Part shown: positions 22,496 to 38,266 of the stretch, piece after piece
Position numbering within the stretch: the first letter of the stretch is position 1
How the letters are laid out: each line of letters starts with the position of its first letter
Virus record (IMG/VR): IMGVR_UViG_3300016472_000923
Length of the DNA: 64,000 nt
Reading direction: 5' to 3' (one strand)
From: a virus
Made by a program: the position numbers and the translations under genes
The notes under the pieces: generated by a model
What the model was told of the DNA's origin: nothing
The model's database searches: none
What the model saw: only the letters and a program-made list of their open reading frames with translations

Positions 22496-23827
22496 TTAAC
22501 TGACGAGATCCCAGTCTCGATCTAACCAAGGGAATAATGTTCTCCAGTCACACTTTCTTCTTCGATCCAACTCATCAAGAAATGCCTGTAGAGTTTTGAT
22601 GCGTTCTGTATTTTTCACTGAATTTTTAACAAACAGAGCTTGCCCTTGCATCTGCTGTCTGGCGGTTTTTTGCGTTTCAGTATCAACCGGCATAAGATCG
22701 ATGACTCGACTGAAATCCTCATCAAAAACACCTCCGCCAAACACAGTGGGATGCATGCCATTTACCTTCTGAGGCTCTCCTACAACCAAATCAAAAGAGT
22801 GTTCGATAAAATTTTCTGGAGATCTTTTTTTGTTCCAGTGATTTATTTTTTCAATTAATTCGGGCAAGGTCTTGATCGTCAGCGAACTGATACAACTGTG
22901 TATGGCAAGTTTGCACCAGGGTTTATCAAGCATCCATTCAAAATTTTGTTGCCATGTTTCGAGATCCAACCCCCATCTCACATATTCCTGTTGTGGGCCC
23001 CAGCAATCTAGACTTGCGGTAAGCTCTAATTGCAGTATAGATTCCGTTTTTACTAGGTATTCGAATCGCTGCATTTTTTCTACAAATTTTTTGTGAGGCA
23101 ACATCATGTTGGTAATCATATTAAAAGTCAAAGATGAATTTTTGTGATGTTCCCAGAAGTCTAAACTTTGATCTAATTCTTGTTGCAATAGACTTTCCCC
23201 GCCCAACAGTTGGAAATGTCTGATTATCTTGTATCTTTGGTCGGTTTCAAGATAGGACCAAAAATCAGAAATCATCCGCTGATATCTGTCATTGGATGCA
23301 ATATGAAAAGTTTTTTTAAAGTTTCCTATCTCTATGTCGCCATACTTCCTGATTTCATCATTCCATTTTGAACTTAATACAGGATCACAATATACACATG
23401 ATAGATTACAAGTATTGTTGAAGTAGACTTCTAAGATAATAGGAGTCACCGAAGTAGCAGTTGGGTCCACTAAAAGTTCCGGCGGTATCTTGTCAAGACC
23501 GTGAGATCTCTCAAGCGTCATGAGTCTATCGCTCATGCCACCATTCATTTCAACATTCTTGCAATATTCGCATCCGTGGCCAGGCCATTGCCCTTGAAGC
23601 ATTTTTTCTCTAGCCTGTATTTTTTCTGGTAGATTGTGGAAATCCTGGAAGTTCTCAGGATCGATTTTATATGGTTCGGTTCTATGACAACTACTGGTTT
23701 TTCCTGTTCCCAAGTTGATCGTGCTCCAGGCCCATTTCAACAAACAGGCTGTATCTGTTTTGATCGGGAAGATTTTTTTACCAGGAAAAATTTCATAAGT
23801 CATAATTATTTCGCACCTTTTATCCAA
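22496..23827 (-). CDS. Radical SAM protein with N-terminal SPASM/twitch-like Cys region
   Basis: CNLSCVYC; N-terminal C..KW..SCH and GCEYC; LLGGE. Confidence 0.9.
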   Translation of the reverse strand: MDKRCEIIMTYEIFPGKKIFPIKTDTACLLKWAWSTINLGTGKTSSCHRTEPYKIDPENFQDFHNLPEKIQAREKMLQGQWPGHGCEYCKNVEMNGGMSDRLMTLERSHGLDKIPPELLVDPTATSVTPIILEVYFNNTCNLSCVYCDPVLSSKWNDEIRKYGDIEIGNFKKTFHIASNDRYQRMISDFWSYLETDQRYKIIRHFQLLGGESLLQQELDQSLDFWEHHKNSSLTFNMITNMMLPHKKFVEKMQRFEYLVKTESILQLELTASLDCWGPQQEYVRWGLDLETWQQNFEWMLDKPWCKLAIHSCISSLTIKTLPELIEKINHWNKKRSPENFIEHSFDLVVGEPQKVNGMHPTVFGGGVFDEDFSRVIDLMPVDTETQKTARQQMQGQALFVKNSVKNTERIKTLQAFLDELDRRRKCDWRTLFPWLDRDWDLVS

Positions 23828-23865: not shown

Positions 23866-25569
23866 ATGGCGACAGAATTACAGCAGATCGAATCATTATT
23901 GGCAGAATTTCGTAGACCTTGTCCAGACACTGCAGAATATCAGGAAAGACTAACAGAAGAGTTTGGCATAATCATCAACCAGAGATTCACGGACTATTTC
24001 CTCAAAATCCGCCGGGTCCTGGATCTCAATTCGGACATACCACACATGACACGCGGATCAGCAGGATCCAGCTTGGTATGCTATCTCATGGGCATAACTG
24101 ATGTGGACCCCATAGAATGGAACATTCCCCTGGCACGATTTCTTAATCCCTTCAGAGACGACTTGCCCGATGTGGATATTGATGTGCCTCACCACCAGCA
24201 AGAACTGGCCATGCAGCGTATCTTTGATGCTTGGCCCGGCAAAACAGCCCGCATCTCTAACTATGTGATGTACAAAGAACGATCAGCACGACGAGAAGCA
24301 GCCAAACGATTGGGTGCCAAGGGCAGACTGCCCAGAGACATCGACTATGAAAAACTGGGTGTGGATGTGGAAGAGGCTCAGCGCATAGAAAAGAAACTCA
24401 TCGGTAAAAAACGCTGTCTGTCAAAACACTGCGGCGGTGTCATAGTGTTTGATCGTAAATTACCACAGAGCCTGTTTCGTGATGACAATCTCATCTTGCT
24501 GGACAAAAACGAAGTAGAAGATCTCGAACATCTCAAAGTTGACATCCTAGCCAATCGTGGACTCAGCCAACTCATGGAGATCGATTCTTCTCGCATGATA
24601 CACGAGTATCCCAAAGAAGACGACCTCACCGCTGACTTGTTGCAGAGAGGCGATGTGCTGGGTGTGACCCAGGGAGAATCGCCGGCCATGCGTCGCCTGT
24701 TCCGCGCTATCCGACCCACATCAGTGGAAGATTGTGTTTTTGCCACAGCCTTGGTCCGTCCAGTGGCCGTGGAAGGTCGGAAGAAAGCCAGTTTCTTCCA
24801 TGACTGGACTAAGACATCGGTGCAAGAATCGGCCATAGTGTGCGAAGACGATGCCATAGAAAAGATCATGAAACTGATCTCGGTCAACGCATATGAAGCC
24901 GACATGTATCGTCGTGCGTTTGCCAAACGCAACGAAGAAAAGGTCATGGAGTTCATGGCTCGATTGGGAGATCATCCTGACCGTTATGCCATATATCAAG
25001 CGATGCAGAGTCTAAGTGGGTTCGGCTTGTGCCGCGCTCATGCTGTGAATCTTGGCCGTTTGATCTGGGCCCTGGCCTATCAGAAGGCACACAACCCGCG
25101 AGAGTTTTGGAGGGCAGCTCTCAAACATTGCCAAGGAAGTTATGCCCGTTGGGTCTATCGCAACGAAGCCAAGCGTGCAGGTTGGGATCTACGGGATCTG
25201 GGATTTGATAATTGGATCACTGAAGATCCTGTGGAATCATTCTTGGAACACGGATGCTGGAACTCGCCTGGCTTCTTGCCTGGCATGGGTCTGCGGAATC
25301 TTTACTTAGAAAAATTTGAGTTTGCTGGCATCGTGGCCAACAGCCGTGTGTTCCGCCGAGACAAACAAAAGTACATCCACTTCATCACTCTAGGAGTAGG
25401 CGAAGGGGAGTATGTGGATCTCATAGTGGATCATCCTGTGAAATACAGTTCAGGTTCGGTGTTGGTTGGGCAAGGAGAGCGCCAGAGCCGAGACGGCAGC
25501 CAGTTCCTACAGGTGCCTCGCAAGGATATCAAGGCCATGGCCATCGATCAATATCTCAACCTTGCTTGA
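23866..25569 (+). CDS. dnaE: DNA polymerase III alpha-like (family C) lacking the PHP domain
   Basis: RGSAGSSLVCYLMGITDVDP, RFLNP, LPDVDID, HCGG, KVDIL and AHAV motifs; short OB-like C-terminus. Confidence 0.88.
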   Translation: MATELQQIESLLAEFRRPCPDTAEYQERLTEEFGIIINQRFTDYFLKIRRVLDLNSDIPHMTRGSAGSSLVCYLMGITDVDPIEWNIPLARFLNPFRDDLPDVDIDVPHHQQELAMQRIFDAWPGKTARISNYVMYKERSARREAAKRLGAKGRLPRDIDYEKLGVDVEEAQRIEKKLIGKKRCLSKHCGGVIVFDRKLPQSLFRDDNLILLDKNEVEDLEHLKVDILANRGLSQLMEIDSSRMIHEYPKEDDLTADLLQRGDVLGVTQGESPAMRRLFRAIRPTSVEDCVFATALVRPVAVEGRKKASFFHDWTKTSVQESAIVCEDDAIEKIMKLISVNAYEADMYRRAFAKRNEEKVMEFMARLGDHPDRYAIYQAMQSLSGFGLCRAHAVNLGRLIWALAYQKAHNPREFWRAALKHCQGSYARWVYRNEAKRAGWDLRDLGFDNWITEDPVESFLEHGCWNSPGFLPGMGLRNLYLEKFEFAGIVANSRVFRRDKQKYIHFITLGVGEGEYVDLIVDHPVKYSSGSVLVGQGERQSRDGSQFLQVPRKDIKAMAIDQYLNLA

Positions 25570-26962
25570 TCTGCCCCAACAATTGCTTGAGTTTGTTTGA
25601 TTGCACTTCTGCTGTGATCTTTCCAGGCTCATCGGCCACAGTGGCATTGGGTTCACCGTCAGTTAGCGTGGACTTGGCCTTGATGCTTTCATAGATACTT
25701 GGGGCACGCTTCTTGAACTCCTGATATCCTTCATCTTGTGCGAGATCTCGGATCCTCAAGCTCTCAATGTCAAACTCCAGTTCGACTTTCTGCCCCACTC
25801 CCGAACTGGATCGAGTCTTCATCAACTGCAATTGATAGCGGCCACGCTCGCGCATGGCTCTTGATGTAAAGATACCAAACACATTGTCCGCTGTGTTAAT
25901 CTTGGAAATACCACCTGAGATATGGCTGTGATCAAACTCGATCTCTTCCACTGCTGCACGATTCAACTGCGAAGCAGTGACAAACAGCACATTGAGTTCT
26001 TTGGCCAAATTACGCAGTTCTTCTGAAACATATTTGTCTTTTACAAACAAATCGTTGGGACTTACTTTGGCTGACACCGGCATCAGCAAGTCCAAATAGT
26101 CGATGCACAAAAAGTCAGTCTTGACCTTGGTCTGTATTTCCAGTTCTTTGAGATACGCACGGATGTCGTTCACTGTGCTCTGTGCTGGCATGTATTTGAT
26201 GCGCAGTTTGCCGGCTTTCTTGGCCAGCATCTTGACCTTCATCTCCACTGTGTCGATGTCTCGAAAGATCTCTTTGGCTGCTGTATTGGTCATCATGGAA
26301 TCTATGCGATAAGAGCACAAGCCCTCTGAGAGTTCCAAAGTGATGTATACTCCGTTGAGTCCGGCCTGTGTCCAGTTCACTGCCAAGTTCTGCATGAACA
26401 AACTCTTACCTGATCCTGATCCCCCAGCGAAGATCTGCAGTTCACCGCGATTGAAACCACCATACAACAGTTTGTCCAGCGCAGGCCAACCTGTGCTGTT
26501 CTGCCCGTTGTTGCTCTTCAGTGCCATGAGCCTGCTACGCGGATCATCAAAGTAATCTGTGCCCATGTCTTTGGTCAAGCTGATTTGCACAGCGTCTTTG
26601 ATCAGTTTCTCTACCGGATCAAAGTTGCCCTTTTCCAAGAGATCTGCTGACTTCAGGATGGCCCGTTCCAGTTCTTGTCTGCGGGTGAATCCTTCAAACT
26701 CTTCAAGGAACCAATCAAAATGTCCTTCGTTGAGATCTGGAATGTGCTCCAGCTTGACTCCAGTGGTCGCAGATACCTGTGTGCGCTCGGGCATGGTCTT
26801 GTGCCGATCGCAGTGTTCCTTGATAAATTCGGCCGCGGCACGCAGGCTGCGATCGAAGTTCTCTGGATTGAAGATGTTCTGCACACGCACATAACTCTGT
26901 GCATCTTGCAACATCATCTCCAGGAACAGTCGCTGGACATCAACTCCGTAATCTTTTAACAT
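25556..26962 (-). CDS. Replicative DnaB-family helicase (T4 gp41-like)
   Basis: GGSGSGKS Walker A; ITLEL, IDYLDL, TASQLNR and MKTR motifs. Confidence 0.93.
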   Translation of the reverse strand: MLKDYGVDVQRLFLEMMLQDAQSYVRVQNIFNPENFDRSLRAAAEFIKEHCDRHKTMPERTQVSATTGVKLEHIPDLNEGHFDWFLEEFEGFTRRQELERAILKSADLLEKGNFDPVEKLIKDAVQISLTKDMGTDYFDDPRSRLMALKSNNGQNSTGWPALDKLLYGGFNRGELQIFAGGSGSGKSLFMQNLAVNWTQAGLNGVYITLELSEGLCSYRIDSMMTNTAAKEIFRDIDTVEMKVKMLAKKAGKLRIKYMPAQSTVNDIRAYLKELEIQTKVKTDFLCIDYLDLLMPVSAKVSPNDLFVKDKYVSEELRNLAKELNVLFVTASQLNRAAVEEIEFDHSHISGGISKINTADNVFGIFTSRAMRERGRYQLQLMKTRSSSGVGQKVELEFDIESLRIRDLAQDEGYQEFKKRAPSIYESIKAKSTLTDGEPNATVADEPGKITAEVQSNKLKQLLGQIKQG

Positions 26963-27373: not shown

Positions 27374-28741
27374 TCAATCCGGTCGATCCATCAGATTGTA
27401 ATCTAACAGTCGGAATCCAGATTCCTTGATAATTTTTTCTAGTTCCTCGTGTTTTTCTTTGCCTGATATTTTTTGTCCTATCATTTTATAGTTGTGTATG
27501 TTTTTTTCAAGTTGTGTCCCGGGCAATACTGAAGAACTAGACAATTGCACACCTGCCACCGAATTGTTAGCATACTTGCTACGATCTCGGAACCATTGCT
27601 TGCTTGCTTCGTACTCTTCGTCGGTCTCGCTTGGGTAACCAGAAATGCACAACAAGTTCACCGGAATCTGATATTTCTGTGTCATTTCTAGGAAATGGTC
27701 AAGATCTTGATTTGAGAATTTTTTTCCTAACTGTACTCGTACACGTTCCACCACACTCTCGACTCCCACAAATAACCGTTCTGGATTGCTGTCTTTCAAG
27801 AGTTTCCAAAATTCTTCGTTATGCACCAATGCACTTCTTATTATAAAACTTCCATCCCACGATATGCGTTCAGTTGGATACAAATTTTGATTTAAATTGT
27901 AATCGCTCAATAGTTTAAGCAATTTTTTAAATTCTTTGAGATTGCCATTACATACACTGCTACGGAATTCAAATTTAGTATAGCCATATTTTTCCATCTG
28001 GCTCATCATCTGATTAAAAATGTTGTCTGCATTCAACCATTGGAATTTTTTCCAATAAACGATGACATCACAGAACTCACAATTTTGTACGCAACCACGA
28101 CTGTCGATAATTGGTACACTTTTTTCCGCATACCTGTGCCATCTATAATCTGAATAGTCCGGCATTGGTAATGAATTAAGATCGTCCACTGGTTGCCACT
28201 GTGATGAATTGATGCCGGGATAATTTAAATTTCCTTTCACATACTCTACCAACGAGATTTCCCCATCACCGCTGATATAGTCGTCGATCAATCCTTTTTT
28301 CTTTAGTTTCGCCGGAAAGCTAAAATCTATCATACCAGACAGTAGTTGTAATCCAGGCCCCCCGATGATTATCTTGGTATCTGGGGATTTTTGCCGCAGA
28401 GCCGCACAGAGCCACGCTGTAAAATGCTGACACGAATAACAGAAAAGGCTCAATCCAATTATTGTTGGTTTGTGCATTAGTATTTCTTCCGCACAATGAT
28501 CAATCATTGATACAAGTTCGTCGACTATCGGCTCAGAGATGATTTGATTTTTAAAAAACCAAACAAACTCTTGTTTGTGCTTGTGCTTTTGAAGATAATT
28601 TTCCACGTCCGCGTTGAGATCCAATGCGACAGCATCGATTCCATGTTTTGACAAAGATGCTTTCAACACAGCCGGTGCTGCCAATGGACGGGCAGTGTTT
28701 ACATAAGGCACCGCTGCTATTATTACTTTGTGTTGGCTCAT
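27374..28741 (-). CDS. B12-binding-domain radical SAM protein
   Basis: N-terminal APAVLK..LDLN, IGLS, IIIGGP and GDGE motifs; SRGCVQNCEFC; GVES; GYPSET. Confidence 0.88.
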   Translation of the reverse strand: MSQHKVIIAAVPYVNTARPLAAPAVLKASLSKHGIDAVALDLNADVENYLQKHKHKQEFVWFFKNQIISEPIVDELVSMIDHCAEEILMHKPTIIGLSLFCYSCQHFTAWLCAALRQKSPDTKIIIGGPGLQLLSGMIDFSFPAKLKKKGLIDDYISGDGEISLVEYVKGNLNYPGINSSQWQPVDDLNSLPMPDYSDYRWHRYAEKSVPIIDSRGCVQNCEFCDVIVYWKKFQWLNADNIFNQMMSQMEKYGYTKFEFRSSVCNGNLKEFKKLLKLLSDYNLNQNLYPTERISWDGSFIIRSALVHNEEFWKLLKDSNPERLFVGVESVVERVRVQLGKKFSNQDLDHFLEMTQKYQIPVNLLCISGYPSETDEEYEASKQWFRDRSKYANNSVAGVQLSSSSVLPGTQLEKNIHNYKMIGQKISGKEKHEELEKIIKESGFRLLDYNLMDRPD

Positions 28742-28742
28742 T

Positions 28743-29729
28743 TTAAGAAAACTTTTTCAACAATTTCTTTTTGTTGAACTCGATTTTGATACGACTGGTT
28801 TCTCTCGATTGGAATATATGTATCAATGTCCCCAGGCGACCAAAACGCTTCACAGCATCATTGACATCCTTGATATGTGCGGGCCAGTCGGGCATGCTTA
28901 CAGCCCACCCCAATTCCACTGCACGATCTACCAACTTCATACCAGCAGCATCTTGGTCGGGTACCACAGTTATTTCTCGGCCCAAACTGCGTATCAATCT
29001 TGCCTGTGCATCATTGATCTCAGCATGCAACACTGCCAAGCCTGCGATACTGAGTGCATCAAACACTCCTTCCATCACCAGCACATGTTGCCAATCATCT
29101 CGTTGGAGATCTGTACCAAACACATAGCCCGGCTGGATGTCCTGGATATACTTGGGCGTCTTGTCATCGAGATACCGCGTGGTATAACCCACTATGCGAT
29201 TGTCATAAGTGAAAGGGATGATCACCCCAGGCCGAGGTTTCCATTTTTCACCAGGCACCCCGGCATTCATTCCCATGGGATAATCCAAAGGAACGCATCG
29301 TTCTCTTAGATACCGAAGATGATCTGGAGTATGTTCGTCGATGATCACAAATCCTTCTGGCAGTTCTCGATCTTCAAATTTTATGTCCTGCAGGATGTGT
29401 GCAGTACGCTGCCGCTCATCGAGTATGCCTGCCACGCTGCGGTGACGAAGGCTTTCGAGATTGATACGCTCGATTTCTTCCTGTGGCACATTCATCCAGC
29501 TCAGTAATTTACGAGCTTTGAATGATAGATTCCTGCCCATCACAAAGCTGGCAGTGAACCCACAGTTAAAGCAATGATAACTCCAACCTTGATCCGTGGT
29601 TTTTATGCCGCCTCGTTTTCGACGATCAGCACTTTCACCGTTGTGTACACAACAGGGGGCATCGAAAGATATCCATCCGGAATGAGACTGCTTTCGCTTG
29701 CTGGGAAGATAGATTAGTAAATCAATCAC
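28743..29729 (-). CDS. DNA primase (T4 gp61-like)
   Basis: Zn finger PCC..YHCFNC; TOPRIM EGVFDA, PDQD and KDVND motifs. Confidence 0.9.
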   Translation of the reverse strand: MIDLLIYLPSKRKQSHSGWISFDAPCCVHNGESADRRKRGGIKTTDQGWSYHCFNCGFTASFVMGRNLSFKARKLLSWMNVPQEEIERINLESLRHRSVAGILDERQRTAHILQDIKFEDRELPEGFVIIDEHTPDHLRYLRERCVPLDYPMGMNAGVPGEKWKPRPGVIIPFTYDNRIVGYTTRYLDDKTPKYIQDIQPGYVFGTDLQRDDWQHVLVMEGVFDALSIAGLAVLHAEINDAQARLIRSLGREITVVPDQDAAGMKLVDRAVELGWAVSMPDWPAHIKDVNDAVKRFGRLGTLIHIFQSRETSRIKIEFNKKKLLKKFS

Positions 29730-31293: not shown

Positions 31294-31671
31294 ATGGTTG
31301 ATAACATCTTTTCAAGACTAGCTGAAAAATACCCGTTCATAACCTTGTGTATTCATTCCGGTAATGAATACGTTGGCATAATACAAAATCGCGATGATGT
31401 AATAACCACGATCTATGATTACGGAAACATACAAGAATCCTCGCTCAGGCACAAGTTCTTGGATCTGGCCAATGCATGGTGGTGGGAAAGTAACCGCAGC
31501 ATACCCATCAACATATTCCTGCGTGGGGAATGGGATATTTTCCGACCTTATCTACGGACTTTCAGTAACAAAGATCTAGAGATCGTACACGGTCCGGTGT
31601 GCAGCCTCAATGATATCATGCGCAAGAAAAGCAAACGCAAAAGTATCACGCTGGTGCGTAAATTACCTTAA
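31294..31671 (+). CDS. Conserved phage hypothetical protein
   Basis: YPF, EYVGIIQN and WWWESNRSIPINIFL motifs. Confidence 0.75.
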   Translation: MVDNIFSRLAEKYPFITLCIHSGNEYVGIIQNRDDVITTIYDYGNIQESSLRHKFLDLANAWWWESNRSIPINIFLRGEWDIFRPYLRTFSNKDLEIVHGPVCSLNDIMRKKSKRKSITLVRKLP

Positions 31672-32228
31672 TTCAACAGATTCATGTGCAAGGCCACTAG
31701 CCTGGCATAAGAAATGCTGTGGCTTTTTTTAAAGGTGTAGCCGCGGCTGTCATCACCGTCCCATACAGATTCAAACACGCGATCCCATGGTTGGTTTTGC
31801 AGGTGGGCCTTGCCGGGCCGTATCACAGATATGAATGCAGCCATCCTAGGTATACTGTCGGGGCGCATGGTCCCCAGGAGGTCAGTGTAGTTGCCCACAT
31901 GGACCAGTTGCTGTGCCCACTCTGGATCCTGCCATAATCTCGACCAAGGAGGATCCTTATCTAACATCTGCTGATAGTGCTCAGGGTCTCGTATGGCCTG
32001 GTACACACTCATGTTCAAGAAATCCAGTTTGAAATAACCACAATCCTCGGCTTGTTCATACTCAATCGCCGCACAATCCAGAACTGGATCATAGGGTATG
32101 TCTGTGACGTACACGCCCGAATTATGCCGGCGAGAACGACCGTCGTTGTTTTGCCGGGCCGGCACGTGTTTTATCAAACGCAGTATGCTATCACGGTCAG
32201 CAAAATCTATATCAATGTCTGCTTTCAT
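31668..32228 (-). CDS. Miniature or split DnaE (family C polymerase) catalytic subunit, 186 aa
   Basis: DIDID, HNSGVY, FKLDFL, IRPG and FKKSHSISYA occur in DnaE order. Confidence 0.8.
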   Translation of the reverse strand: MKADIDIDFADRDSILRLIKHVPARQNNDGRSRRHNSGVYVTDIPYDPVLDCAAIEYEQAEDCGYFKLDFLNMSVYQAIRDPEHYQQMLDKDPPWSRLWQDPEWAQQLVHVGNYTDLLGTMRPDSIPRMAAFISVIRPGKAHLQNQPWDRVFESVWDGDDSRGYTFKKSHSISYARLVALHMNLLN

Positions 32229-32260: not shown

Positions 32261-33256
32261 TTATCCATTGAAATACTCCATGACCTCTTGGCTATTGGCA
32301 AACCATTTATTTTGAGATACCTTGGATTCTTTGCCATACAGATTTTCAAGTTTGGCCTCTAGGTAGGCCTCTTGCAATAAATCAATACCATCTAAATCAA
32401 ATATTTCCCCTTGGATGATCCTGTTGAAAATTGTATCAGTATTTTGCTTATGGTCTTTGTAAATCTGTTTTTCTAAAAAAGTATCATGCAATGTATCTAG
32501 GTCTTTTTTGTTAGATATCTCGAACCCAAAAAATCGAGCCAAGTTTGTGAGTTGATCGATAAACTGAGACTTGTGATAAAAGCAAGAGAAAGGAAAGTCA
32601 AAAATTTTGACACTGGTTGCATATTGCATCTTTGTTTGTTGTGTGATGAAACCGGCTTTTGAAGGGTCTTTGAATCCTATCTTGAAAAACTCTCTCAGTA
32701 CGAATCTGGGGCAATGGGGATGATTTTCATTGAGCTCCAGTGGAATAAATCCATGGATATCAGTACATTCTTTTTGGATCCATTCTGGTAGCGATTTAAA
32801 ATCATCCAAGGTGTATACCTCAGGCCACGAAGGATCTTTAATTGCCTTGTAGCTGGTTTCAATCTGCGAATGGAAAAATGAGTCGATCAGTTTATCTAAC
32901 ACCCAGCGGTAACGATCATTGTTAAACTTATGATAGGTATCGATTTCTAAAAATTGATTATTGTAACCATATCCCCCGGCCCTCAATAGACTGATTGCCG
33001 ATAACGGCAGCAAATCATCAATCGCTATTTTGATAGCAATCACACCGTCAAAGGATCTTGCCATACCGGTCGACGAAAATGAAAAATGTCCGCAGTGGAA
33101 AACTTTTTCGCTTTGATAGACTTTGTCATGACTACCGCCCGTGGAATCAAAAGGCGATTCATTGCATTGTACATTGGCTAAAAATTTGTTACAAACAAAT
33201 TCTAAATAGTTTCCGTGCGCCCCGCCTTGGAAATCAATTATTATCTTTTTCACCAT
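32261..33256 (-). CDS. Hypothetical protein, sulfotransferase-like N-terminus plus YxxIKDPSWP module
   Basis: IDFQGGAHGNYL; YKAIKDPSWPEVYTLDDFKSLPEWIQKEC; AT-rich. Probable start MVKKII (track start 33349). Confidence 0.55.
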   Translation of the reverse strand: MVKKIIIDFQGGAHGNYLEFVCNKFLANVQCNESPFDSTGGSHDKVYQSEKVFHCGHFSFSSTGMARSFDGVIAIKIAIDDLLPLSAISLLRAGGYGYNNQFLEIDTYHKFNNDRYRWVLDKLIDSFFHSQIETSYKAIKDPSWPEVYTLDDFKSLPEWIQKECTDIHGFIPLELNENHPHCPRFVLREFFKIGFKDPSKAGFITQQTKMQYATSVKIFDFPFSCFYHKSQFIDQLTNLARFFGFEISNKKDLDTLHDTFLEKQIYKDHKQNTDTIFNRIIQGEIFDLDGIDLLQEAYLEAKLENLYGKESKVSQNKWFANSQEVMEYFNG

Positions 33257-33927
33257 CCAGCCTTTTGCAACAGATTGCGGCAGTATTCTACATCTGCTGC
33301 ATAATCTTTGAACTTGTGCTGCCAGAAATCCGTGTCGATCATGGGCCATATCATAGCGATCTGTTCCGAACTAAGTCTTGACAGCAATTCCTGGCCGGAA
33401 TCGCAGTTATACACGACCCAGGCACTGATTCGACCGGTGGTGATGGCATGGCACACAACATTGCTGTTGCCGTATCGCAGATAATCTCGATCAGGATTGC
33501 CTGTGTCTTCTGACCATGCTATGGCCTGCTCCATGGCTCTGGCCAGGGCATCGCTCACAGCCTCACGACGAAGATAATCCATAAGATATTCTGTATACAC
33601 ACTGTCCCTGCACCAATGATCGATCTTTTTGTTGTTCTTCAACAACCACTCAGTGAAACGATTGACATTTATAGCCCGGATGCTCACACAGTATCGACCG
33701 TACTTGACGAATGCGCGATAGTAAGGACTTTCGGCAAAGTCATCAAAGGTTTTCAACTTCGCAGAACCTTGGGTGATCTCATAGAAGCGCAGATAACTCT
33801 GCATTCCTATCTGCACACCCACTTCATCTCGTTCTTGATACCGGCGCTTGGGCTCGCAGACATGCACAGCCAGGCTCGACTCTCGCTGGAAAGACTTTTT
33901 ACAATATTGGCAGATAAACTGTGTCAA
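33250..33927 (-). CDS. Zn-finger protein of the replication cluster
   Basis: FICQYCKKSFQRESSLAVHVC. Probable TTG start overlapping the upstream stop (track start 33972). Confidence 0.65.
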   Translation of the reverse strand: MTQFICQYCKKSFQRESSLAVHVCEPKRRYQERDEVGVQIGMQSYLRFYEITQGSAKLKTFDDFAESPYYRAFVKYGRYCVSIRAINVNRFTEWLLKNNKKIDHWCRDSVYTEYLMDYLRREAVSDALARAMEQAIAWSEDTGNPDRDYLRYGNSNVVCHAITTGRISAWVVYNCDSGQELLSRLSSEQIAMIWPMIDTDFWQHKFKDYAADVEYCRNLLQKAGW

Positions 33928-34430
33928 GGTTTGTGTAGTTTGAATGCTACTGTAACACGCAGATCGGGACAATGTCTAGTGGGTTCTAGTCCACAGTGTG
34001 GAATAGTGGAATCGAAAAACACCATGCTGTTGGGGGTGGGATATCGTGTGACTACCCCATGATCCGTAGTGAACATGGTATGACCACCCCACTCTGGACG
34101 CCATTCATTGTTGGCGTAATAGAGCAAGGTATAGTATCGGCCGGGTTCCACATCTTCCACGTCCTGGTGTATACTGCCACAGAGTCCGTGGGTCTGGCCG
34201 TTGGCATACACACGGTCCAGGACCCAGTCCACTTGCGTGTCAGATTGGATTTTCTTGAGCAAGGTGGTGTTGAACAACGGATCGTCTTGGAGATCCATGT
34301 ACCAAAATTTAACACCTTCCCCATCGTTGCTGCTCTGATCGAATCGCCAGCCCTTGCCGCGCTGTGTCTTGGTGCATACCTGTGCCCAGTGGTCATAATC
34401 TAACCATTCATACACGCTATCAATATCCAT
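33924..34430 (-). CDS. 2OG-Fe(II) oxygenase (prolyl-hydroxylase-like)
   Basis: HQD, W..EWGG and FDSTIPH..RVTVAFK motifs. Confidence 0.88.
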   Translation of the reverse strand: MDIDSVYEWLDYDHWAQVCTKTQRGKGWRFDQSSNDGEGVKFWYMDLQDDPLFNTTLLKKIQSDTQVDWVLDRVYANGQTHGLCGSIHQDVEDVEPGRYYTLLYYANNEWRPEWGGHTMFTTDHGVVTRYPTPNSMVFFDSTIPHCGLEPTRHCPDLRVTVAFKLHKP

Positions 34431-36184: not shown

Positions 36185-36818
36185 ATTGTTTCTCTAAGAT
36201 AGTCCGGCAATGCTGTGCGAATCCCGATTGCCATTCTACGCTGTCCACATGATAACCAGGGCGGGGCTTGAACATGCCACTGGTTGCTAGATTTAATGAA
36301 ATTTCATGGCTGCGGAAATCGTCGAGCATGAGATGGTTCCAGGGATGCAGAGGTTTGGCTGGATTATTGCTCAGTCCGTTGAGCACGAAAGCAAATGCTA
36401 TATTTCTACGCTGTAACTCTACAAGACAACAACGGACCATGAGATAACTCTTTATCTCCATCATGTCGCTGCAGGTCGTCGCCTGATAATACCGCACTGC
36501 CATGGATCGATCAGGATCTCTATGTATATGTCCATTGCTGAGCCATCGATATGGAGGTTCATGTGTGTCCACAGGCATTGGCTGATCATTCACAAATTCC
36601 AATCTGTCTGGCATGGTCCATCCTGATATCACTGCATCGGGCTTGTGTTCTAATCCCTGCCAGAGATTATAAGCGATGATGGCATTGCTCATGCCCGACT
36701 GGGCATGATTTATAACTTGATATTCCGAGAGCATTTCGCTCCAGTGTTGGCCAGGAAACTCCGGATCTCTTTGCATGAAACTATCACCTACTACCAACAA
36801 TCGTTTCATTTCATCCAT
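36177..36818 (-). CDS. SGNH/GDSL hydrolase-like protein
   Basis: VVGDSF, NHAQSGMSN and C-terminal YH blocks. Confidence 0.7.
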   Translation of the reverse strand: MDEMKRLLVVGDSFMQRDPEFPGQHWSEMLSEYQVINHAQSGMSNAIIAYNLWQGLEHKPDAVISGWTMPDRLEFVNDQPMPVDTHEPPYRWLSNGHIHRDPDRSMAVRYYQATTCSDMMEIKSYLMVRCCLVELQRRNIAFAFVLNGLSNNPAKPLHPWNHLMLDDFRSHEISLNLATSGMFKPRPGYHVDSVEWQSGFAQHCRTILEKQFG

Positions 36819-38266
36819 TCCAGTTTTTCATGGGTGAATGGATATCTAGCATCTTTGTAGTAGGCCTTGCGTTTGGTCAGATGCCTTTTTGCAAACTTAC
36901 AAGTCGATGTAATATCCCATATCTGTACGAAGTCTTTATCTTCCGCTTTGCGTATCCCACGGCCAATTGACTGGATAACACGCACAAAAGACTTGCCAGG
37001 CTCAACAAGCACCAGATTAAAAATACGGGGAATGTTAATGCCAACCGCAGCAACTCCATAGGTAGCCACAATGATTTTGTCTGTTGCCTCAGCCACTTCG
37101 TCATAGTGATCTTGTCTTTCTCCAGCCTTGGTAGCACCGGATATGAATACCGCGTTCGGCAATCTATTTACCAACTCCTGGCCCGGGGCGATGCGGTCAA
37201 CCAACACCAAGGTATTGCCGGTCTTGTTGACTTCGGCAATCAGCGTGGCCATGGTATCTAATCTGCCGCTCTCTTCCAACAGGTATTTGAGTTCGCTCTG
37301 ATAGTTGTTGTACTCCACATGGTCTACTAACTGCACGATGTTGACATGGCACTGTGCCAGCACTCCTCGATCCTGCAGTTCAGCAGCCGCCAGGCGCGAT
37401 ACCACAGGTCCCAAGCTCACATGTATGGCCTGGAACTCAAAGTCTTCCTTGGGCACAGTTCCTGTCAAACCCCACCGGATTGGCACTTGCGACATCACGC
37501 CAGTGAGCAAGGTTTTCAATGCATCAGCCTTGGCCATGTGTACTTCGTCCACTATCACACATACCACACCCTCCAAGAACTCCCCGATGGTGATGTCAGC
37601 AGATTGATTCTTGGTATTCTTCAGCAGGACATTAAGGCTCTGCCAAGTGCAGATGGTATGTTGGCGGCCGAACTCTTTCCTGTCCCCAAAGAACACACCG
37701 GTGTCTAGTCCGAGATTGACATAGTCCTTCTCGGTCTGTGTGACCAAGCTCTTGTTAGGCACTATGACGATGCTACGACCATAGGGCGTGACAGCATGAC
37801 TCAAGGCCGCGGTCATCACGGTCTTGCCAGCACCCGTGGCCACTTCTTGTATGCACTGTGGATTGGCCAAGAAGTCATTGATGATCTCGATCTGATAGTC
37901 ACGGAGAGAAACAGGTTCTCCAGCTTGGGGATGCCCTTTGGGCCAAGTGTACTGTGAAAATGTATCCTCTACCACTGGAGTAAATTCAAAAGTGGTGGTA
38001 TACTCTCTCTGGTCATCGAGCTCAACATCATAGTCATATTCTTCCAGCACTGGCAGGATCTCGGGCAACAGGTTCACATAAGTGGATCCACCCAGTTGGA
38101 AAAATGATACCTTGCCGTCCCAGCGTCCTAATCTCACAGCGGGCAGATAGCGAGCGTAAGGTACATCGTACTTGAATTTGTTCACTAGAGCTCGTCTGGC
38201 ATCCAGTTCCAGTCCTTCGATTTTGACATTGACTTCGTCACGGATTATCAAACGGGCTTGTCTCAC
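36806..38266 (-). CDS. uvsW: SF2 DNA helicase UvsW-like
   Basis: LRDYQ, ATGAGKT, DEVH, LTGT and QSIGRGIR motifs. Confidence 0.92.
   Translation of the reverse strand: MRQARLIIRDEVNVKIEGLELDARRALVNKFKYDVPYARYLPAVRLGRWDGKVSFFQLGGSTYVNLLPEILPVLEEYDYDVELDDQREYTTTFEFTPVVEDTFSQYTWPKGHPQAGEPVSLRDYQIEIINDFLANPQCIQEVATGAGKTVMTAALSHAVTPYGRSIVIVPNKSLVTQTEKDYVNLGLDTGVFFGDRKEFGRQHTICTWQSLNVLLKNTKNQSADITIGEFLEGVVCVIVDEVHMAKADALKTLLTGVMSQVPIRWGLTGTVPKEDFEFQAIHVSLGPVVSRLAAAELQDRGVLAQCHVNIVQLVDHVEYNNYQSELKYLLEESGRLDTMATLIAEVNKTGNTLVLVDRIAPGQELVNRLPNAVFISGATKAGERQDHYDEVAEATDKIIVATYGVAAVGINIPRIFNLVLVEPGKSFVRVIQSIGRGIRKAEDKDFVQIWDITSTCKFAKRHLTKRKAYYKDARYPFTHEKLEWMK

Follow-up and report, generated by a model that had tools for sequence, protein, structure and literature searches.

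A 64,000-nucleotide stretch of DNA from an uncultured giant T4-like phage (IMG/VR record IMGVR_UViG_3300016472_000923; hereafter the window) encodes a 186-aa protein, P0001. It is very probably the C-terminal unit (C-unit) of a minimal family-C polymerase core that T4-related group 2.2 jumbo phages encode as two polypeptides. The assignment to a split core is based on homology, fold, conservation, co-occurrence with an N-terminal unit (N-unit), a natural fusion of the two units and synteny. P0001 is a real and strongly conserved protein, but it is neither new nor a stand-alone enzyme, the split having been described in 2021. Iyer, Anantharaman, Krishnan, Burroughs and Aravind reported a split minimal Pol III alpha in group 2.2 jumbo phages and proposed it as a model of the ancestral enzyme (Iyer et al., 2021, Viruses 13:63, PMC7824862).

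No smaller version of the bacterial replicase fold is known than this split minimal Pol III alpha. What the window adds is that the C-unit family is extremely abundant in uncultured phages and strongly constrained, and that some phages with a C-unit also carry an unsplit compact DnaE. The value of the finding lies in a well-supported annotation and in a pointer to a tractable experiment.

The C-unit gene and its motifs

31668-32228, minus strand: C-unit gene (P0001), start codon ATG at 32228-32226, stop codon TAA at 31670-31668, 186 aa; probable C-terminal unit of a split minimal Pol III alpha (phrog_11778, fold, conservation)

A preliminary description of this DNA, made from its letters alone, had reported an intact reading frame of 186 codons with family-C polymerase motifs. 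The frame was confirmed and lies on the minus strand, and all of the motifs listed there are present in DnaE order, namely DIDID (residues 4-8), HNSG (35-38), KLDFL (67-71), RPG (137-139) and FKKSHSISYA (166-175). The N-terminus reads M-x-x-DIDID, the DxD strand thus beginning after three residues. Residues D4, D6, D8, K67 and D69 make up the second half of the palm, while R137-P-G and F166-K-K-S-H170 belong to a reduced finger region.

The C-unit is not recognized by routine domain searches. No Pfam family was found in P0001 even at E-values up to 10; neither DNA_pol3_alpha (PF07733) nor DNA_pol3_finger (PF17657) appeared above the gathering score, and neither a PHP domain nor an intein/Hint domain was seen. 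The GS (GRGS) triphosphate-binding motif is likewise absent from the polypeptide. The preliminary description was therefore right that the GRGS motif, the PHP domain and intein ends are all missing. Also, phmmer with P0001 alone returned no match among PDB sequences.

Homology and predicted fold

Profile comparisons place P0001 firmly within a phage protein family, with a similarity well outside what chance would produce. It matches phrog_11778, labelled 'DNA polymerase', with an E-value of 2.1e-52 (residues 2-185 on profile positions 6-191 of 197), and weakly the DnaE-type profile phrog_405 of 1190 positions (E 6e-5). The profile of the C-unit family in turn matches the Pol III alpha subunits of Escherichia coli (E 2.7e-6), Mycobacterium tuberculosis and Taq, with E-values from 2.7e-6 to 8e-5. 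In the alignment of this family profile to E. coli alpha, K67 and D69 correspond to K553 and D555, R137-P-G139 to R639-P-G641, and F166..H170 to F756..H760.

An AlphaFold model of P0001, built from the family alignment, has a pLDDT of 95.8 and a pTM of 0.89. Compared with the PDB by Foldseek, its top 16 matches are all C-family polymerases, with probabilities up to 1.00. A second structural aligner (VIA) likewise matched the model with C-family polymerases only, at Z-scores of 9.5-8.4 and with 179-184 of the 186 residues aligned, the next unrelated fold reaching a Z-score of 4.0. The matched ranges are residues 970-1291 of PolC, 460-833 of Taq alpha and 399-776 of E. coli alpha. The E. coli range 399-776 contains D401 and D403, and D4 and D6 fall where the alignment to it begins; with D69 equivalent to D555, the earlier claim that all three catalytic aspartates have counterparts here holds.

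The same alignment bears out the claim that the thumb and finger segments are largely deleted. The thumb has collapsed, the interval between D403 and K553 of about 150 residues in E. coli being reduced to about 60, and the finger segment from RPG to FNKSH is shortened from about 115 residues to about 26. Taken together, the structural and profile alignments identify P0001 as the second half of the DnaE palm followed by a shortened finger module.

Conservation, selection and abundance

In metagenomes, the C-unit is represented by more than 8000 clusters at 90% identity, with lengths of 186-192 aa. When 1.8 billion representatives were scanned in full with HMMER, 386 relatives were retrieved; almost all are 180-215 aa long, and the match starts at residues 2-10. 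A search for longer forms yielded no real ones and a single spurious match with 15% coverage. The C-unit of the window is just 31-43% identical to the copies in cultured phages; its own clade is environmental, uncultured and very abundant.

Across 78 diverse homologs, D4, D6, K67, D69 and P138 are invariant, and D8, H35, G38, R137, K167 and H170 are at least 90% conserved. Selection was evaluated on 78 ungapped gene copies from IMG/VR relatives. The median pS is 0.80, meaning that synonymous sites are saturated, pN is 0.18, and the median dN/dS is 0.085 for the 98 pairs with dS below 1. None of the 78 copies contains a stop codon or has lost D4, D6 or D69. The C-unit family is under strong purifying selection. 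Given this ratio, the retained aspartates and the DnaE fold, three outcomes that would have counted against the preliminary description, namely relaxed selection, loss of the aspartates and a fold other than DnaE, were not observed.

The N-unit and a natural fusion

The proposed partner is a protein of about 170 aa represented by phrog_11127 (171 positions, labelled 'DNA polymerase'), which passes the Pfam DNA_pol3_alpha threshold. A standalone N-unit of this family is encoded by each of RaK2, Ettore, G001 and G002. The distance between N-unit and C-unit is about 33 kb in RaK2 and about 43 kb in the PA5oct-like phage Ettore, and searches of these two whole records found no other C-family pieces. 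G001, a complete IMG/VR relative of 346,856 bp with direct terminal repeats, carries a C-unit that is 76% identical to that of the window, with the N-unit lying about 98 kb downstream of it; the corresponding distance in G002 is 96 kb. The N-units end in a GxGRGSS...EFLR region (...EFLR/K), at the position just before the PDxDxDF strand of unsplit DnaE, which is where the C-unit starts.

The two units also occur together. Of the records in the isolated-phage collection, 96 contain the C-unit and 93 the N-unit, and the counts per genus agree. In metagenomes the N-unit family comprises more than 7500 clusters, which makes it as large as the C-unit family; its JGI name is often 'DNA polymerase III alpha subunit'. 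A search of all six frames of the 64-kb window found no phrog_11127 N-unit, which is the expected outcome for a gene that should lie about 96-98 kb away. We infer that the N-unit is present in the window's own genome.

Fused N+C forms are very rare among the C-unit relatives. P0185 is a natural fusion of 375 aa in which residues 8-180 match phrog_11127 and residues 190-372 are the phrog_11778 mini-core; its N-half carries the GxGRGSS motif and scores above the Pfam DNA_pol3_alpha threshold. It was the lone natural fusion found, on one 2.4-kb contig (L191, positions 1066-2193; ENA ERZ28653423 scaffold_211374). The convergent ORF downstream of it on this contig is weakly similar to the convergent ORF of the window.

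The structure of P0185 was modelled from an alignment (A5) in which the placement of both halves was verified and the C-half is only four sequences deep; the model is confident from about residue 80 onward. Its residues 69-375 superimpose on Taq alpha 284-830 (Z 18.9, 291 residues, 3.5 A), PolC 814-1288 (Z 18.5) and E. coli alpha 270-773 (Z 13.6), a score double that of the C-unit alone, in a model that carries no co-evolution signal between the halves and for which AlphaFold may simply recall the DnaE palm. From this superposition on DnaE, the N and C modules are predicted to pack as one contiguous palm. P0185 could serve as a single-chain construct for biochemistry.

The preliminary description had placed P0001 as one piece of a split replicase whose GS-motif subunit is encoded elsewhere. 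The heteromeric part of this proposal is upheld for the family by RaK2, Ettore, G001, G002, the record counts of 93 against 96 and the fusion, whereas the replicase part is doubtful given the PolB of G001.

The replication gene neighbourhood

The C-unit gene is located in a conserved replication module together with the following genes.

36806-38266, minus strand: UvsW-type helicase (phrog_16, E 2.1e-72), forming the upstream end of the module, in the uvsW position as in RaK2
33250-33927, minus strand: upstream neighbour of the C-unit, putative Zn-finger protein of 225 aa (phrog_11058, E 1e-53; C2H2 match below threshold)
31294-31671, plus strand: convergent neighbour of the C-unit, 125 aa (phrog_11637, E 2.9e-35)
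28743-29729, minus strand: gp61-type DNA primase (phrog_47, E 3.5e-33), syntenic with the gp61-like gene of RaK2
25556-26962, minus strand: gp41/DnaB-type replicative helicase (phrog_19, E 3.5e-67; Pfam DnaB_C in the L095 gene table)

The order in the window is uvsW, several small ORFs, the C-unit, the convergent small ORF, one more gene, the primase and the gp41 helicase, and it matches the order of the replication genes in RaK2 and Ettore. The stop codons of the convergent ORF and the C-unit overlap by 4 bases, a layout that is the same in these two phages. Among 80 related C-unit loci, the phrog_11058 gene is present in 76 and the phrog_11637 ORF in 78, and this conserved trio may include further partners of the mini-polymerase. 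The replication cluster in the preliminary description had included UvsW, a Zn-finger protein and a gp62-like protein. Its UvsW assignment stands, the Zn-finger is represented only by the sub-threshold C2H2 match, and the gp62-like label is not borne out, as the product of 34431-34868 matches phrog_11758, an entry to which PHROG assigns no function.

An unsplit DnaE-like polymerase in the same window

Only 6 kb from the C-unit lies a complete DnaE-like polymerase that the preliminary description had missed and that changes the polymerase inventory of this phage.

23866-25569, plus strand: P0121, unsplit compact DnaE-like polymerase, 567 aa (Pfam and phrog_405)

In P0121, both Pfam DNA_pol3_alpha (2.9e-40) and DNA_pol3_finger (1.7e-13) score above their cut-offs, and the match to phrog_405 has an E-value of 3e-62. 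A GS motif, the DxD, the third Asp, RP and the finger motifs are all found in this one chain; a PHP domain is absent. The gene is arranged tail-to-tail with the gp41-type helicase gene, in the same layout in independent assemblies. P0121 and the C-unit family are homologous (hhalign E 4e-5) with 20% identity; this low value led us to reject the idea that P0001 is a recent duplicate of P0121.

Relatives of P0121 number at least 167 in IMG/VR (77-95% identity) and 149 in JGI/NCBI metagenomes, and the gene adjoins the helicase in 76 of 80 related loci. The notion of a very recent insertion limited to two relatives was dropped once these syntenic copies (at least 167) had been found. Nevertheless, its distribution is patchy, as RaK2, Ettore and G001-G005 have no P0121 and neither do most of the 80 closest C-unit loci. 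Every one of the 31 P0121-bearing loci that extend far enough contains the C-unit, which there keeps all motif residues and is still under constraint (pN 0.26, pS 0.81).

Neither an N-unit nor PolB was seen in five P0121-bearing IMG/VR contigs, which are fragments of 14-22%. A P0121-bearing metagenome contig of 186.8 kb stops about 21 kb beyond the C-unit and does not reach the place where the N-unit would be expected. P0121 is not the missing partner of the C-unit.

The coexistence of a split mini-Pol III and an unsplit compact DnaE is a modestly new element. Phages with the split version were said to contain none of the other Pol III domains (Iyer et al., 2021), and the P0121-bearing lineage is an exception to this rule. 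It can be speculated, though we think it improbable, that the compact DnaE has assumed a core role, displacing PolB as the replicase or the standalone N-unit. Were this true, it would mean a T4-like jumbo phage whose DNA synthesis depends on C-family enzymes only, and a natural series within one virus group from an unsplit compact DnaE to a two-piece minimal DnaE.

Comparison with known family-C polymerases

P0001 belongs to the same family as the split Pol III alpha of Iyer et al. (RaK2 ORF124, the PA5oct/Ettore homolog and Atu_ph07), with the same length, DxD start, invariant residues and gene neighbourhood. The distant N-unit and PolB are common to the close relatives of the window as well. 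What sets the window lineage apart is the additional unsplit 567-aa DnaE-like gene with its fuller Pol III finger domain.

Compared with the cellular family-C enzymes of E. coli, Taq and M. tuberculosis and with Geobacillus PolC (2hnh, 3e0d, 5lew, 3f2b), the C-unit has the same palm and finger fold and shares the catalytic triad, the K553 equivalent, the RPG motif and the FNKSH-type motif. It differs from them in being about one sixth of their size, in having no PHP, clamp-binding, HhH, OB or tau-binding regions, in falling below Pfam detection, and in that the palm half with the GS motif is provided by another polypeptide of the split enzyme.

A set of compact unsplit phage DnaE-like proteins, comprising P0121, a 575-aa protein of LR756508.1 and the 'DNA polymerase III alpha' of PB1-like Pseudomonas phages, resembles the C-unit in consisting of phage-encoded C-family cores without a PHP domain, and the two groups are homologous. 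The compact enzymes, however, are single chains of about 520-575 aa that include a GS motif, fuller fingers and an extension at the C-terminus; Pfam recognizes them above its thresholds, and their identity to the C-unit is only about 20%. Along with its P0121-like gene, the uncultured phage LR756508.1 (484 kb) encodes PolB, and it has no split units. Its PolB matches lie in two separate open frames of 1022 aa and 625 aa about 4 kb apart (260623-262308 and 266583-266900; L188-L190), which suggests a split or interrupted gp43-type polymerase.

The catalytic subunit of cyanobacterial DnaE is likewise a C-family product of two distant genes, DnaE-n and DnaE-c. In cyanobacteria, split-intein ends on the two halves mediate protein trans-splicing, and a full-size DnaE results. 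The phage halves, in contrast, break cleanly at palm elements, have no Hint domain and total only about 355 aa.

Proposed mechanism and alternative explanations

In the mechanism that we propose, the C-unit would supply the metal-binding carboxylates D4, D6 and D69 with the neighbouring lysine K67, together with a short finger module formed by R137-P-G and the FKKSH motif. In cellular DnaE, finger motifs of the RPG/FKKSH type contact the incoming nucleotide and the template. The separate phrog_11127 protein of about 170 aa would contribute the triphosphate-holding element that the C-unit lacks, a helix-loop carrying the GS motif. Held together non-covalently, the two units would form a core of about 355 aa that consists of a Pol-beta-type palm and short fingers and has neither a PHP domain nor a thumb, a clamp-binding region or an OB domain. 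Complex formation by the N and C units, polymerase activity and the biological role are what we infer from the comparative evidence; we found no published biochemical or experimental study of the split enzyme in the literature.

PolB bears directly on the role of this enzyme. By sequence analysis, it was found in all phages with the split enzyme, which was suggested to cooperate with it in the synthesis of one strand or in repair (Iyer et al., 2021). The 64-kb window contains no PolB, and the complete relative G001 encodes one of gp43 type with 888 aa. Because G001 has this PolB, the split mini-Pol III alpha is probably an accessory DNA polymerase and not the main replicase. Candidate roles would include gap filling, repair and primer handling next to the primase-helicase.

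A different possibility is that the N and C units together form a nucleotidyltransferase that serves neither templated replication nor templated repair of DNA. It might, for example, extend or process the RNA primers that the neighbouring primase makes, add tails in the manner of a terminal transferase, or carry out a synthesis connected with DNA modification. An enzyme that has no thumb, clamp-binding or OB modules is unlikely to synthesize processively, PolB is available for bulk replication, the C-unit gene always lies between uvsW and the primase-helicase, and small Pol-beta-type nucleotidyltransferases are the nearest folds after the C-family polymerases. These, however, score at most Z 4.3 against the fusion model, compared with 18.9 for the C-family, and the C-family-specific finger motifs RPG and FKKSH are retained and nearly invariant, which leaves this explanation an unlikely one. 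We find it less plausible still that the C-unit works with P0121, as an accessory or regulatory subunit, instead of with a standalone N-unit, or that the N-unit has been lost. The proximity of P0121 at 6 kb, its GS motif, the C-unit in every one of the 31 sufficiently long P0121-bearing loci and the lack of a visible N-unit in P0121-bearing contigs would fit such a pairing; yet P0121 has a complete set of catalytic motifs and so needs no complement, and those contigs are only 14-22% complete and fall short of a site 96-98 kb away. Moreover, most C-unit phages, complete genomes included, have no P0121, and the C-unit is equally conserved in them.

It is very unlikely that P0001 is a catalytically dead relic of DnaE, either kept for a structural or regulatory purpose or in decay, even if the loss of the GS motif and of five sixths of a normal DnaE and the failure of Pfam to recognize what is left might give that impression. 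Across the 78 diverse homologs, the three catalytic aspartates and the remaining active-site residues show little or no variation, the low dN/dS was obtained at saturated synonymous sites and with every copy free of stops, and the family is huge and uniform in length.

Other genes in and around the module

Several further genes in this part of the window deserve mention. The Zn-finger gene and the C-unit are separated by a 331-aa ORF (32261-33256, minus strand) for which neither Pfam nor PHROG gave a match; its GC content is 37.7% against 47.8% for the window. Homologs were found in only 15 of 80 related loci at no more than 53% identity, and the ORF has the appearance of a variable accessory gene of foreign origin within the conserved module.

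A gene for a B12-binding radical SAM protein (27374-28741, minus strand) is located between the primase and the helicase and is rare among relatives, with counts of 1/80 and 5/80 loci. A second, weak radical-SAM-like gene (22496-23827, minus strand) adjoins P0121. The product of 33924-34430 (minus strand) is named 'DNA endonuclease V' in PHROG (phrog_274), but the identical protein carries a precomputed Pfam assignment to 2OG-FeII_Oxy_3. The gene product is probably an oxygenase of the 2-oxoglutarate/Fe(II) type, and the PHROG name looks misleading.
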